A stretch of DNA of 11,732 nucleotides, taken from the IMG/VR virus record IMGVR_UViG_2548876857_000009; one strand, written 5' to 3'. Each line of letters starts with the position of its first letter. The stretch's first letter is position 1. Below, piece after piece: positions 1,776-7,071 of the stretch. This DNA comes from a virus (Duplodnaviria; Heunggongvirae; Uroviricota; Caudoviricetes). The notes beneath the pieces were generated by a model. The model made no database searches. It worked only from the letters and a program-made list of their open reading frames with translations, and was not told the DNA's origin. A program made the translations under genes and the position numbers.

Positions 1776-1910
1776 AGGAAAAAAAATTTTTTTTCGAAAG
1801 AACTGTTCACACTGTTCACCTTTCTGTTTTCTCCTTTTATTTCATAGTGATAGGTGGTGAATAATGGGTGAAGGGTGAACATTCGATTCTTCACCTCCGG
1901 CATTCTGCCG
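1776..1910. repeat. crr (cis replication region) direct repeat copy 1, with type-I iteron octamers
   Basis: Contains TGTTCACACTGTTCACC and the inverted GGTGAA...GGTGAAGGGTGAAC. Near-identical to copy 2 exactly 180 bp downstream (1803 aligns to 1983). Confidence 0.8.
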
Positions 1911-1955
1911 GTGTGACTCATACCGGTGATTAATCCTCCGCACTGAAATCACTCA

Positions 1956-2090
1956 GGAAGAAAAAAGTTTTTTTTGATTTGATTGTTCACACTGTTCACC
2001 TTTCGTTTTTCTCTTTTAATTTCAGTGTGATAACGGGTGAATATACGGTGAAGGGTGAACAGTGGATTGTTCACCTTCGGGGGATTCAGG
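1956..2090. repeat. crr direct repeat copy 2
   Basis: Same octamer arrangement as copy 1 at 180-bp period. Matches the P4 crr description (two ~120-bp direct repeats separated by ~60 bp) located just downstream of alpha. Confidence 0.8.
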
Positions 2091-2134
2091 GATGAAAAAA
2101 GACCGGCAGATGCCGGTCAGATGAGTCATGAGGG

Positions 2135-4468
2135 TCAGGTTGTTGCAGGGTCGTCACATTTTGGCAGCCAGTCGCCGTAGCTTTCCTCTTTCAGTGTCAG
2201 GTTGGTCTGTATCCCCTGTTTGGTATGGCGCTTCTCGTAATTCAGTCCGTATTCCTTCAGCATCACCGGCAGCCCCAGCCCGAACATTTTCAGGCTGAGT
2301 ACATTCCGGTAGCCGTTTGCCTCCATGTAGGCCAGATAGGCGTGATAGAGGTATTTACGGTAATTACGCGGGATGATACTGGCGTTCCCCATATACATGC
2401 CGCTGGTCTGCGGCAGGGTTTCCAGATAGCCGATAAAATCAAACGTCGGGTCGGCATCCCGTTTGATGTTCAGTGCCTCGTCTGAGTTCTGCTGGGACTG
2501 AAGCAGTGACCGGGCGAGCATCGGGTCGCTGAACTTCTGCATCAGGTGACGCACGATGACCGCCAGCTCGCGGGTGATTTTGTCCTTAAGCTGCGGGTCG
2601 CGCTCCTGCGGGGCTATCTGTTCCGGGAAGTGAATAATCACCCGCCGGCGTGACACGCCGCCGCTGCGGTCGGTGAAGCGCATCGGGTTATTGTTCACGG
2701 CCAGAATCACCGCCGGGATGTGCGTGGAGTATGCATCCCGGTATTTCGGGTCAACGGACACCGCATCGCCGCCGGTGATGGCCTTGAGTCCGGCACCGTC
2801 GCCGCTCCATTTTTCCTGGTCCGGCAGGCGTATCAGTGAGAAGCCAGTTAACGCGGCACGTTCACGCGGGGATTCCAGCGTCTCGATGGTGGCCGACGTG
2901 GCGTTATCCTCCCCGGCCAGCAGGGTGGCTATTTCGGCCATGATACTTTTGCCGCTGCCGCCGGGACCGGTCACCTCCAGAAAGAGCTGCCAGTCGTAGC
3001 GGTTTGCCAGCACCATAAACAGTGCGGCCAGAATCACGTCGCGTTTTTCCGCACGGCCACCGGCGGCACGGTCAAGCCAGCGCCAGAACGCGGGGGCGTG
3101 GGTTTCCAGCGTTTCCCCTTCCACCGGCGGGGTGAAATCCACATCGCACAGGGTGCGCATCCAGTGTGACGGACTGTGCGGGTGGAACGTGCCGTTCTGC
3201 GTGTCGAGCACGCCGTTACGAAAGCCAATCAGGCGGCGGGAGGGGGCTTCCTGCTGCGGAATAATCAGCTTCAGGGTGTCCACCACGGAGGCCACCTTCC
3301 CGGAGGAGAACGGCGCACGCAGCCGCTGAAACAGCCCGGCCACATCCCGGGCAAAGTCCTGTGGTGGCAGCACCTTCCAGACACCATTTTCATAACGGGA
3401 CAGAAGCTGGCCGTTGGCATCGACCGCGAGCGCCTCGCCGTAATGCTCATAGATACGCATGGCCTTTTCGCTGGTACTCATGGCGGAAAACTCCGCTTCG
3501 CTCATGGTGTCGAACGGGCTTTCAGCCGGTGGCCGGATGGCATCGTAAATGGCCTTACGGGTGGCTTCCCCGCCGTACTGCGTGAAGGCATCATTCCAGT
3601 CACCGAAGACCGGCGGCAGGGCAACAACACCTTCACACGCATCTGCGGCTGCGGCGGCTTTTTTCTGGCCGTCACCGCTGAGGTCACGGTCTGCGGCAAG
3701 GACAATCTGACAGGCCGGATGCTTCTGCCGGGCAAGGCTGGCCAGAGAAAAGAGGTTCACGGAAGAAAGCGCCACCATCACCGTTTCACCGGTCAGGTGA
3801 TGTACGGTAAGTGCGGTCGCGTATCCCTCCGCTATCCACAGACGTTTTCCGGCCTGATTCTGTCCTTCAAGGATGTGACAGGTGCCCCTGACCTGCCCGC
3901 CTTTCAGGGTGCGCTTACGGCCGTCAGCGCTGATTAACTGAAGGTTAACCAGTTCGCCGCTGTCGTCATACAGTGGCACCACAAGGTCACCGGCGCGCCA
4001 GCTCACGCCACCGGCTCTGTGTGTGCCGGTCAGCATCCGGCATTCCCGGCCGGGAAAGCCCTTGCGGGTCAGGTAGGCGTTACCGGTTCCGGTACGGGTT
4101 TTCGCCATCAGGGTTTGTGCCAGTGCGGCGGCGTTCTTCCGGGCAGCGTCTGTTTCAGCGCCGGCGGCGGCCGTCACTGCCGGGTCAGCCGGGGGCAGGC
4201 TGCCGGTCACGGCAGCCACCTTTGCGGCCGCGTCGGACGGGGAAACACCAAACACCTTTTCAACCAGTTTCAGGCCGTCACCGGCACCACACTGATTGCA
4301 GTACCAGGTGCCGCGCCCCTCCCTGTCATCAAAACGGAAGCGGTCACTCCCGCCACAGACCGGACAGGGCTGATGACGGTTCTTAAGCACCTGAATCCCC
4401 AGCGCCGGGAGAATACGCGGCCAGTGGCCGAGCGCATGGCTGACGGTGGCGGTTACGTTCATTTTCAT
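2135..4468 (-). CDS. alpha: P4 alpha-type replication protein: N-terminal zinc-binding primase fused to a D5/SF3-type helicase
   Basis: 777 aa, the same length as P4 alpha. N-terminal Cys motif CPVCGGSDRFRFDD...CNQCG; Walker A VTGPGGSGKS in the C-terminal half. RBS AAGGAGAA 8 nt upstream of the ATG at 4468. Sits between cnr and crr as in P4. Confidence 0.9.
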   Translation of the reverse strand: MKMNVTATVSHALGHWPRILPALGIQVLKNRHQPCPVCGGSDRFRFDDREGRGTWYCNQCGAGDGLKLVEKVFGVSPSDAAAKVAAVTGSLPPADPAVTAAAGAETDAARKNAAALAQTLMAKTRTGTGNAYLTRKGFPGRECRMLTGTHRAGGVSWRAGDLVVPLYDDSGELVNLQLISADGRKRTLKGGQVRGTCHILEGQNQAGKRLWIAEGYATALTVHHLTGETVMVALSSVNLFSLASLARQKHPACQIVLAADRDLSGDGQKKAAAAADACEGVVALPPVFGDWNDAFTQYGGEATRKAIYDAIRPPAESPFDTMSEAEFSAMSTSEKAMRIYEHYGEALAVDANGQLLSRYENGVWKVLPPQDFARDVAGLFQRLRAPFSSGKVASVVDTLKLIIPQQEAPSRRLIGFRNGVLDTQNGTFHPHSPSHWMRTLCDVDFTPPVEGETLETHAPAFWRWLDRAAGGRAEKRDVILAALFMVLANRYDWQLFLEVTGPGGSGKSIMAEIATLLAGEDNATSATIETLESPRERAALTGFSLIRLPDQEKWSGDGAGLKAITGGDAVSVDPKYRDAYSTHIPAVILAVNNNPMRFTDRSGGVSRRRVIIHFPEQIAPQERDPQLKDKITRELAVIVRHLMQKFSDPMLARSLLQSQQNSDEALNIKRDADPTFDFIGYLETLPQTSGMYMGNASIIPRNYRKYLYHAYLAYMEANGYRNVLSLKMFGLGLPVMLKEYGLNYEKRHTKQGIQTNLTLKEESYGDWLPKCDDPATT

Positions 4469-4482
4469 GGTGTTGTTCTCCT

Positions 4483-4803
4483 TCAGTGCAGTACCGGCGC
4501 TTTTATGTGACGGGCACAGAGTTCATCCATCACAACCAGCCCGAGAAAGGACAGCGACGGCGCGGCCTTCAGGGGGCCGGATTCCATTAAATCTTCCAGC
4601 AGGGCACAGGCTATCTGACGCCCTTTTTCCTCACCGTGCTGGCGCAGATAAAAGCCTTCCAGCTCAGCGGCGATGGCCGCCTCCAGTGATTCAAGGGTGA
4701 GATGCGGGTAGCGGTGCTGACGTTCGCACACGGTCAGCCAGGCACAGGCGACAGCACGACGGTAAAGGGCTGCGCGTAAGACGGGCGGTAAGGGTGTTTT
4801 CAT
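4483..4803 (-). CDS. cnr: Cnr-like copy-number regulator (P4 orf106 equivalent)
   Basis: 106 aa, immediately upstream of alpha on the same strand; RBS GGGAGG 8 nt before the ATG. Assigned by size and position as remembered for P4; no sequence memory to confirm. Confidence 0.6.
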
Positions 4804-4938
4804 TTGCTTTCCTCCCTGTGACAGATGACTGCATTCCGTGCCGGTTGCATTAACTGATAAGGCATATCTGCGTCTCCTGAAGACGTGCGTATCCCTGCGC
4901 GAATACGCACATTTAATTTTTCGGGTGTCGTTTTTTAA

Positions 4939-5394
4939 TTACAGATAATTGCGGTAACTGTTATCCGGGGTGATTTCCGGGTCAGGCTCCGTGCGGGGAA
5001 TTTCCCGCCATTCCCGCGCCACCGGTGCCGCCCGGCTGACCGGAACAGGGTCCTGCGGGTAAATATCCAGATATTTCTCCCGCCATTTCTGTAATTCCGG
5101 GTCTCCGGCCATTTCTTTCAGTACCGCATGCCGGTTTACGGGGCTGCGTTTAAACAGGTCAGGACGGTCACAGGTAAATTCCCGCAGAAAACGCCCCAGC
5201 GGGATGTCTGTGGTGCGCCCGTCAGCGAGGATACGCACAAGGATACTGAATTTACGGCGGTACGGGTTCCAGACAATGTCCGGGCAGCGGTACGGCATTT
5301 CCCACGGAATACCGTCTTCCAGAATGCCGACCACGGCCACATCGGGAAAACCGGCAGAACGGTAAATCTCACCGGGCTGGGGAAAATCAAACAT
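4939..5394 (-). CDS. Hypothetical protein, P4 orf151 equivalent
   Basis: 151 aa ORF in the position of P4 orf151, upstream of cnr. Its start overlaps the stop of the upstream ORF, suggesting operon coupling. Confidence 0.6.
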   Translation of the reverse strand: MFDFPQPGEIYRSAGFPDVAVVGILEDGIPWEMPYRCPDIVWNPYRRKFSILVRILADGRTTDIPLGRFLREFTCDRPDLFKRSPVNRHAVLKEMAGDPELQKWREKYLDIYPQDPVPVSRAAPVAREWREIPRTEPDPEITPDNSYRNYL

Positions 5395-5674
5395 GCGTCT
5401 TGTCTCCCCGGTCTTTCTGCTGGGCGAGAAAATCGCGGCACAGGCCTTTGGCTTTCAGCTCATTCAGCACAAAATCAATATCTTCATTCAGGTAGCTGAA
5501 AATATGCGGAATGTAGAGCTGATGCAGGCCGGAGAGTTCACGGTGAATCAAATCACCCCCAACAAACTGGGATACGGCGCTGGCGCGGTTGAGCTTATGG
5601 TAAGCCTCAATGCTGAGGTGTTCACGGGCGTCATGACGCGCTGAGACGGTCTGAGGGGCTTTTTTATTACGCAC
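5387..5674 (-). CDS. Hypothetical 95-aa protein, GTG-initiated; possible P4 epsilon (eps) equivalent by position
   Basis: The frame has no internal Met. GTG at 5672-5674 is preceded by GGAGG at 6-nt spacing and overlaps the stop of the upstream 65-aa ORF (GTGCGTAA). The eps name is a positional guess only. Confidence 0.5.
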
Positions 5675-5864
5675 GGGACACCTCCACCACCGGCAGACGG
5701 GCAGCAAGGGAGAGCACATAGTCACGGACAAGGGAACGGCGGGCGCTGCGTTCATCACCGGCGACGGTGCGAAGCATACAGATACGGGGATGACGGTCTG
5801 CGCGACGGACAGCCGCAAACACAAAGACAAATTCAGGGTGTGAAGGGGTAAGGGTTGTAGCCAT
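5667..5864 (-). CDS. Hypothetical 65-aa protein of the early-left operon (kil/eta region)
   Basis: ATG at 5862-5864 preceded by AAGGAG at 8-nt spacing. It is the 3' part of the ORF-track frame 5667..6302, whose upstream portion I regard as noncoding. Confidence 0.5.
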
Positions 5865-5929
5865 AAGGCAGTCTCCTTCGAGTAGCAAATAACTGCTATC
5901 GCCGGAGTTCCTACGCTCGATGGCGATAG

Positions 5930-6000
5930 CCCAGACGGGGGTAGGAATACCGGCCTCGAAGAATACCGGCCAGCCCGGAGGCTGCCCCGCCTGAGCTACC
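5930..6000 (-). ncRNA. Candidate CI-RNA-like immunity RNA (seqB-like element); approximate boundaries
   Basis: On the minus-strand transcript AUUCCUACCCCC (plus 5937-5947) is complementary to GCGUAGGAAC, which occurs upstream (plus 6150-6159) and downstream (plus 5907-5916). This is the seqA-seqB-seqC arrangement of P4 immunity. The region also has tRNA-like motifs (GGUAGCUCAGG, UUCGAGG), consistent with RNase P processing. No convincing ORF with an RBS. Confidence 0.3.
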
Positions 6001-6253
6001 ATTGACTCAGTGGCATAACATGCGATTGCGAACAGGATCATACCTGCACGGCAAACCACACGCCACACCATAATCTGGCGCTCTGTGGCGTTGATTGCGA
6101 CACAAAAAAAGACGCATGGCGCGTCATATGTCGCCTTCGAGTTACACGGGTTCCTACGCCCGGCTGCCGATTTTGCGGCAGCGGAAAAACTATATCCGCA
6201 AATGCCGGAAAAAGGCAAGCCAGAAAAAGGGACTTTTTGCAGAGCGGGCATCA

Positions 6254-6520
6254 TCATGCGTCGTACCCCCGTTTGCGTCCGGCAATGCGTCCGGCCATCC
6301 ATGCGGTGACTTCAGAGTGCAGCCAGGCCACATTTTTACCGCCAAGACTCACCTGCGGCGGAAATTCCCCCTTACGGATGAGTTCGTAGATGGTCGAGCG
6401 TGACAGGCCGCACAGGTGCATCACTTCCGGAAGACGCAAAAAACGCTCCTGTGTGATGTCCGGCTGCGGCATCAGTGGCGTCACAGGGGCGGGAGACGGG
6501 GAAGAAAAAACAGCTTGCAT
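6254..6520 (-). CDS. vis: AlpA-family DNA-binding regulator, Vis-like (P4 orf88 equivalent)
   Basis: 88 aa. Motif [48 protein letters not shown] is typical of AlpA/Vis HTH proteins. RBS GAGGT 7 nt upstream. It is the first gene downstream of the leftward TGT-N12-ACA dyad. Confidence 0.75.
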
Positions 6521-6622
6521 CGGGCTACCTCGTTAATGTCCATACAGCACCGGATAAGTCCGTCCGGCTTCGGGTAGCGCTTTATTTTGTGAATATTTTC
6601 AGCAGACGCAACAGGGGGAATT

Positions 6623-6640
6623 TGTTCCGGCAACCTTACA
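6623..6640 (-). promoter_or_regulatory. Candidate Delta/Ogr-dependent late promoter element (PLL-like) driving leftward transcription into vis
   Basis: TGT-tccggcaacctt-ACA (TGT, 12 nt, ACA). P2/P4 late promoters carry this dyad centred near -55, which would place the start ~50 nt upstream of the vis ATG. Confidence 0.45.
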
Positions 6641-6796
6641 ATGGCTGTGTGTTTTTTATCCATCCGGACTGGAAGGGTCTCAAAGGGTTCTGAAGGACCT
6701 GGAATTTTTTATAGTGAAATGCAAATTGTTTTTTCTTATTTATTTCAGTTAATTAATAAAAATAAACAGTAATAAACAGCATAAAAAGCCCATCAA

Positions 6797-6904
6797 CGGG
6801 TGAACAGTGGTGAACAGACGGTGAACAGTCATTACTGCGATTATTCACCCTTTAACTTACTGTATTACTTATCTTTTTTCTTATGGTGAACAGAGGTGAA
6901 CAGT
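6797..6904. repeat. ori-like iteron cluster (replication origin)
   Basis: GGTGAACAG three times in tandem (6798-6828), an inverted TTCACC (6845-6850), then GGTGAACAG twice (6886-6903): six octamers in an AT-rich context. The same octamer occurs in crr ~4.9 kb away, matching the P4 ori/crr arrangement. Confidence 0.75.
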
Positions 6905-6981
6905 AAAATATAAAAAAACAAACAGTAAGCCGGTTTTTCCTGCGACCTTTTCCTGGCTTGCCGGTCTGAGGATGAGTCTCC

Positions 6982-6999
6982 TGTGTCAGGGCTGGCACA
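6982..6999 (+). promoter_or_regulatory. Candidate Delta/Ogr-dependent late promoter element (Psid-like)
   Basis: TGT-gtcagggctggc-ACA dyad ~80 nt upstream of the sid ATG; possible -10 CACAAT near 7034-7039. Confidence 0.5.
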
Positions 7000-7071
7000 T
7001 CTGCAATGCGTCGTGTTGTTGTCCGGTGTACGTCACAATTCTCTCAACCTGAAGTGACGAGGAGCCGGAAA

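Follow-up and report, generated by a model that had tools for sequence, protein, structure and literature searches.

A P4-type satellite prophage with divergent vis and sid-delta-psu genes

The window, i.e., the entire 11,732-nucleotide stretch of DNA analyzed here (IMG/VR record IMGVR_UViG_2548876857_000009), carries a P4-type satellite prophage that is 97.4% identical to P4 (X51522/NC_001609) over window positions 1781–9113. The region of interest (Table 1) separates two oppositely oriented transcription units, viz., vis (ORF88) on the minus strand and the sid-delta-psu late operon on the plus strand, in keeping with the gene orientations given in the original prediction made for this DNA. 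The vis product is an AlpA/excisionase-type regulator, with 97% identity to P4 ORF88 and a match to the Pfam Phage_AlpA family (E = 7e-21), and its gene is the first one downstream of the promoter PLL. In the late operon, Sid shows 98–99% identity to P4 Sid, Psu matches its Pfam family, and Delta, the cognate Cys4 zinc-finger activator (PF04606), is intact, with 98% identity to P4 Delta, the PF04606 domain (Ogr_Delta) recovered in two stretches and each half of the protein aligning to P2 Ogr.

The vis-sid intergenic region corresponds to the rep_origin feature of the P4 records, and, in agreement with that annotation, five copies of the ori type-1 iteron GGTGAACA lie between the two promoters. 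This motif has 10 matches in the window as against 0.38 expected, the other five being located in crr (1813–2075). The regulatory region itself is positionally orthologous to that of P4: window positions 6400–7200 align to P4 8910–9711 with 92.9% identity, and most of the differences within this segment are concentrated in 6655–6712. We take the P4 dyads upstream of vis and sid to be the Delta/Ogr-activated late promoters PLL and Psid, respectively. P4 PLL is reported to be dependent on Delta/Ogr, and Vis represses PLL and stimulates Psid. These promoters are already known from P4. Their re-identification in a natural variant of the phage helps with annotation, since the GenBank and RefSeq records of P4 annotate neither of them.

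Table 1. Genes and regulatory features of the vis-sid region, in window coordinates
Feature	Positions	Strand	Sequence	Remarks
vis (ORF88)	6254–6520	-		Pfam Phage_AlpA
PLL predicted start	~6576 (range 6575–6580)	-		Placed from the -10-like element and the P2 benchmark; ~54–56 nt from dyad center
PLL -10-like element	6583–6589	-	CAAAAT/AAAATA	43 nt downstream of dyad center; conserved across P4-like elements
PLL -35-like hexamer	6606–6611	-	TTGCGT	Read from the sequence; in the conserved TTGTTGC block
PLL activator dyad (Delta/Ogr; putative)	6640–6623 (center 6631.5)	-	TGTAAGGTTGCCGGAACA	Exact TGT-N12-ACA; orthologue of P4 9133–9150
Variable ~50-bp cassette, allele B	6655–6712	-	CCTTCAGAAC CCTTTGAGAC CCTTCCAGTC	Just upstream of the PLL dyad
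ori type-1 iterons (five copies)	6799–6902	+	GGTGAACA	Between the two promoters; fits the P4 annotation
Psid activator dyad, site I (putative)	6982–6999 (center 6990.5, -55.5)	+	TGTGTCAGGGCTGGCACA	Exact; identical to P4 9493–9510
Psid site II	7020–7037 (center -17.5)	+	TGTCCGGTGTACGTCACA	Exact; identical in P4 (9531–9548)
Psid -10 hexamer	7034–7039	+	CACAAT	Other clades have CAGAAT; from the gapless dyad-anchored alignment
Psid predicted start	7046	+	A	7 nt past the end of CACAAT; sid ATG 26 nt downstream
sid	7072–7806	+
delta	7803–8303	+		Pfam Ogr_Delta in two stretches
psu	8377–8949	+		Pfam Psu; whole operon 7072–8949

Three exact dyads cluster in the intergenic region

The original prediction envisaged two divergent TGT-N12-ACA dyads flanking ori, one reading into vis and the other into sid. 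Both dyads are real, being exact matches to the pattern at 6623–6640 (TGTTCCGGCAACCTTACA) and 6982–6999 (TGTGTCAGGGCTGGCACA), situated 359 bp apart with the five iterons of the annotated origin between them. A third exact dyad, which the prediction had omitted, is found 38 bp downstream of the Psid dyad (site II in Table 1), and all three dyads have counterparts in P4, at 9133, 9493, and 9531. The placement of the dyads 50–80 nt from the respective start codons holds for Psid, whose dyad ends 73 nt ahead of the sid start codon, but not for PLL, whose dyad is 103–120 nt away from the vis start codon (ATG at 6520).

Across the whole window the pattern has six exact matches versus 2.44 expected, a number reached in 5 of 200 shuffles, and this window-wide excess is weak evidence when taken alone. 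The clustering of the matches is a stronger signal and goes beyond chance: half of them are located within the 551 bp between vis and sid, for which ~0.2 are expected, and in 5000 dinucleotide shuffles the probability of at least two matches in that region was 0.019 and that of at least three 0.001. The remaining matches, at 2141, 4926, and 6129, lie outside the promoter region and were treated as chance occurrences. P4 has no counterpart of those at 4926 and 6129, the latter of which is located inside isrK, whereas the match at 2141 is shared with P4 (4642) and lies inside the 3' end of alpha.

Anatomy of PLL and Psid

The Psid region is nearly invariant between the two elements, with the window and P4 having no differences over 6886–7040 and sharing site I, site II, the CACAAT -10 hexamer, and the downstream genes; only 7041 and 7045, just upstream of the predicted start, are substituted. 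These two substitutions are a point against the proposed assignment, but otherwise Psid is the same promoter in a natural variant. The predicted start, A7046, lies 55.5 nt from the center of site I. Site II has its ACA arm inside the CACAAT hexamer. Delta footprints have been reported around -55 on each of the six late promoters of P2 and P4, and Psid is reported to have a second one near -18, which the position of the third dyad, centered at -17.5, fits.

PLL likewise occupies the same position as in P4, with the same -35-like/-10-like core, TGT and ACA arms, and vis leader. It departs from the P4 version in four substitutions, all of which fall in the dyad spacer and leave both arms intact, and in the exchange of the P4 Cox-box array (9180–9208) for an unrelated cassette of similar length. 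On the minus strand, the dyad is followed by 9 nt, a TGTTGC that overlaps the TTGCGT hexamer, a 16–17-nt spacer, and the CAAAAT/AAAATA element. At both promoters the dyad center is separated from the first base of the -10-like hexamer by 43–43.5 nt, a geometry that puts +1 at 55.5 nt; for PLL this corresponds to a predicted start at ~6576–6577, 54.5–55.5 nt from the dyad center. The starts predicted from these hexamers, ~7046 and ~6576, agree with the original estimates of 7045 and 6575. A consensus scan of 6300–7300 recovered no sigma-70 consensus promoter on either strand, which fits activator-dependent promoters; the cores are weak, with Psid having no recognizable -35 element and PLL only the TTGCGT hexamer.

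Conservation among P4-like satellites

Alignment of Psu proteins yielded 51 loci from representative bacterial genomes, including 26 with the divergent vis/sid-delta-psu arrangement. The divergent loci come from Klebsiella, Raoultella, Citrobacter, Enterobacter, Kluyvera, Tatumella, and other genera, with Sid identity dropping to 27–30%. Even so broad a set retains the Psid dyad: all 27 vis-sid loci from other genera have an exact TGT-N12-ACA at one and the same offset before sid, with the consensus TGTGCCA-N4-TGCCACA, and dyads occur at a density of 2.15 per kb in the intergenic regions versus 0.23 per kb in the remainder of these loci. In a gapless alignment of 28 elements, the Psid layout comprises the dyad, 34 nt, CA(C/G)AAT, ~25 nt with a GAGG-type RBS, and the ATG. 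The corresponding arrangement of TGT-N12-ACA, 34 nt, and CA(N)AAT was detected on the sid side in 98 of 104 IMG/VR regions, these being the unique regions with a PLL core, and the site occurs there as 19 different 18-mers whose arms are invariant. With this site I layout present in all or nearly all surveyed elements, it is a possible marker for satellite late operons.

Nearly all of the 28 aligned P4-like elements retain the PLL core, including the TTGTTGC block, and the vis leader. Within the P4 clade, the arms of the PLL dyad are fixed in 23 of 24 unique IMG/VR sequences, with variation at spacer positions 7–10 and 13. The exact N12 dyad is, however, limited to this clade and a few other sequences: in a large non-P4 clade it is replaced by a symmetric TGT-N11-ACA (TGTGGTG-N3-CACCACA) placed 1.5 bp nearer the promoter, and across the relatives as a whole about a third have TGT-N11-ACA and about a third lack an intact dyad. 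The pattern of retained arms and drifting spacer is accordingly seen for Psid throughout and for PLL within the P4 clade, with a mixed picture for PLL family-wide, where its conservation is much lower than that of Psid. Since the N12 dyad of PLL is not conserved outside the P4 clade, Delta/Ogr may govern this promoter in some clades only, or in second place to Cox and Vis.

Site II has a narrower distribution. The exact form is almost limited to elements with a two-finger Delta of 162–166 aa (38/39), and among the 82 elements that lack it, 79 encode a one-finger Delta of 67–87 aa, an association that is largely a clade effect and hence not independent evidence. In the other clades, site II reads TGT-N12-AGA in place of ACA. 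The satellites with the single-finger Delta of 67–87 aa, which are phiR73-like elements, share the Psid spacing of the window (dyad, 34 nt, CA(G/C)AAT, RBS, ATG) but differ in having AGA for ACA at site II and a PLL dyad that is mostly N11 or degenerate.

Comparison with the late promoters of P2

As a benchmark, we used the activator sites and starts of four late promoters annotated in the P2 RefSeq record. The distance from the dyad center to the annotated start is 55.5 nt for PO and PP, which have one dyad in common, and 57.5 nt for PV and PF. The P2 promoters thereby resemble those of the window in having an upstream dyad of the TGT-N12-ACA class 55.5–57.5 nt from their starts; moreover, the left half-site of PO/PP (TGTGTCAG) is the same as that of Psid, and the arrangement is divergent in both cases. 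They differ in that a single dyad serves PP and PO in both directions, whereas the window has separate dyads with ori between them, and in that the P2 promoters have imperfect sites, ending in CCA or with an N11 spacer, and no second site at -18. At the annotated P2 activator sites there is no exact TGT-N12-ACA: the PO/PP and PF sites are TGT-N12-CCA and the PV site is TGT-N11-ACA. A scan restricted to the exact pattern would therefore overlook all of the genuine late promoters of P2 (sites at 3057–3087, 10239–10266, and 17555–17583), and an exact TGT-N12-ACA is neither necessary nor sufficient for a late-promoter site. By the same token, the N11 form found at PLL in other satellites is not disqualifying, because the annotated PV activator site is itself a closely similar TGT-N11-ACA.

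A variable cassette upstream of PLL

The segment just upstream of the PLL dyad is the most divergent part of the region. P4 has three P2 cox-boxes there, at 9180, 9190, and 9200, with a 10-bp period. A search for the cox-box consensus TTAAA(G/C)NC(A/C) (PMC3936717, PMC5009727) with at most one mismatch recovered none in window positions 6640–6720, so that the window lacks the sequence hallmark of a P2 Cox-activated PLL. Among 32 unique P4-clade sequences, the cassette exists as three discrete alleles with sharp conserved borders, namely the P4 type, the window type, and a third type. The window allele has 10-bp-periodic repeats of its own that are unrelated to the P4 cox-boxes, and more distant satellites feature yet other 10-bp-periodic repeats in the same position.

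W-phi-type Cox repeats were also considered for this cassette and rejected as unsupported: the best box matches at 9 of 12 positions, and CCTAGAARGGAC with up to three mismatches occurs 8 times versus 12 expected, with one occurrence in the cassette. W-phi Cox does not activate P4 (PMC5009727). A blastn search of the cassette against 50,697 phage records returned only chance matches of 18–19 nt, and a k-mer comparison of the cassette alleles with the Pe-Pc regions of P2, W-phi, PhiR44_2, SEN5, and SW3 gave nothing convincing. None of these searches linked the window allele to a known Cox operator of a helper. The P2-like phage fiAA91-ss, isolated on O157:H7, has its cox region disrupted by IS21; O157:H7 is a serotype in which near-identical copies of this region of the window are common.

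The allelic structure raises the tentative possibility, which we regard as rather less than even, that the cassette is an exchangeable helper-specificity module, by means of which a given helper, through its Cox-type protein, would derepress the satellite lineage wired to it, and the element in the window would not respond to P2 Cox. If true, the cassette could explain how closely related satellites come to be matched to different helper phages. It is the only part of the region worth following up.

Proposed mode of late-gene activation and alternative interpretations

The consensus of Ogr-dependent late promoters is TGT-N12-ACA (PMC3931495), and Ogr binds inverted repeats centered near -55 and contacts the alpha subunit of RNA polymerase (PMC3152322). 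Delta is a homologue of Ogr, and both proteins activate late genes of P2 and P4, including delta, psu, and sid (PMC7552001, PMC8628076). The helper Cox protein exerts a further control on PLL, with P2 Cox activating P4 PLL via sites just upstream of it (PMC3936717). Judged from sequence comparison, the dyads of the window are very probably the upstream activator sites of the divergent late promoters PLL and Psid of a P4-type satellite. The motif itself, with exact instances at PLL and at both Psid sites, the positional orthology to the P4 promoters, the spacing, and the presence of an intact Delta all support the original view of them as Delta/Ogr-responsive; binding, activation, and the start sites are points that we infer from the literature on these phages.

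We accordingly envisage a scheme in which Delta from the satellite or Ogr from the helper, as a Cys4 zinc-finger activator, would bind each TGT-N12-ACA ~55 bp upstream of the start and recruit RNA polymerase to core promoters with a usable -10 and no consensus -35. PLL would then drive leftward transcription of vis followed by the left operon, and Psid rightward transcription of sid-delta-psu. Such an organization would couple satellite late functions to the late phase of the helper and set up a positive feedback loop through Delta, the coupled functions being the determination of capsid size, Psu, further Delta, Vis, and the left-operon genes reached by read-through. The two promoters would each have an additional element: at Psid, the second site at 7020–7037, overlapping the -10/-35 spacer, and at PLL, an extra upstream control module at the position where the helper Cox acts in P4.

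Two other accounts would deny the dyads any role in transcription. Around 2.4 matches to a pattern with merely six specified bases are expected in the window by chance, and three of the six observed lie outside the promoter region, with two of these absent from P4; nevertheless, that the promoter dyads are themselves such accidents is scarcely credible, since three matches in 551 bp have P ~0.001 and the fixed-position conservation in 27/27 and 98/104 relatives effectively refutes a chance origin. The dyads might alternatively be replication-origin elements, serving as auxiliary sites for the alpha protein or as boundaries of ori, considering that both are within the rep_origin stretch of the P4 records and that the PLL dyad begins with TGTTC, like the type-1 iteron TGTTCACC. 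This account is very improbable, as the iterons consist of another 8-mer, which is strongly over-represented and occurs only in 6799–6902 and crr, and the dyads maintain a fixed distance to the -10 hexamers and start codons and not to the iterons; furthermore, the late promoters of P2, which are remote from its ori, have a motif of the TGT-N12-ACA class.

A single rival carries some weight, though it is still unlikely; it accepts the Psid dyad as a Delta/Ogr site and regards the PLL dyad as weak or vestigial, with PLL mainly under the control of the upstream cassette, through a helper Cox-like protein, and of Vis autoregulation, so that the PLL dyad would be a minor input. Beyond its arms, the PLL dyad is indeed poorly palindromic, with 4/9 half-site matches versus 7/9 for Psid, and across the family it appears as N12, N11, or not at all; PLL also has a recognizable -35-like TTGCGT with a 16–17-bp spacer, and P2 Cox activates P4 PLL via the sites just upstream (PMC3936717). 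Against this stand the invariant arms of the PLL dyad in 23/24 unique P4-clade sequences despite the varying spacer, and its distance to the -10, which is exactly that at Psid. The N11 form of the other clades, moreover, corresponds to the annotated PV activator site of P2. The reported Delta/Ogr dependence of P4 PLL also speaks against this rival.

Other features of the element

The 5' leader of vis (6521–6580, minus strand) is very highly conserved across genera. It can be folded into an outer stem, GCTACC/GGTAGC, lying over part of the Shine-Dalgarno sequence, and an inner CCGG hairpin; covariation gave no verdict either way on this hairpin, with nearly all pairs being invariant. Further along the left operon, downstream of vis, Rfam matches above the gathering score were obtained on the minus strand at 5919–6006, 6105–6182, and 6143–6195 for the C4 antisense RNA, isrK, and the c4 a1/b1 target, respectively. 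The C4 antisense RNA family includes the P4 CI immunity RNA.

To the right of the late operon, a 328-aa ORF (9283–10269) between psu and an integrase gene occupies the place where P4 has gop, beta, and cII, and it has no match in Pfam or PADLOC. The window contains two integrase genes (1–1451 and 10521–11732). The one at the right end is intact-looking and codes for 403 aa. The left one, on the minus strand, is split or degraded, with an arm-binding part at 963–1451 and a catalytic part at 225–872, and adjoins an IS911 fragment (1–242), to the left of crr. The presence of two integrases points to a second, tandem integrative element of which a remnant is left.
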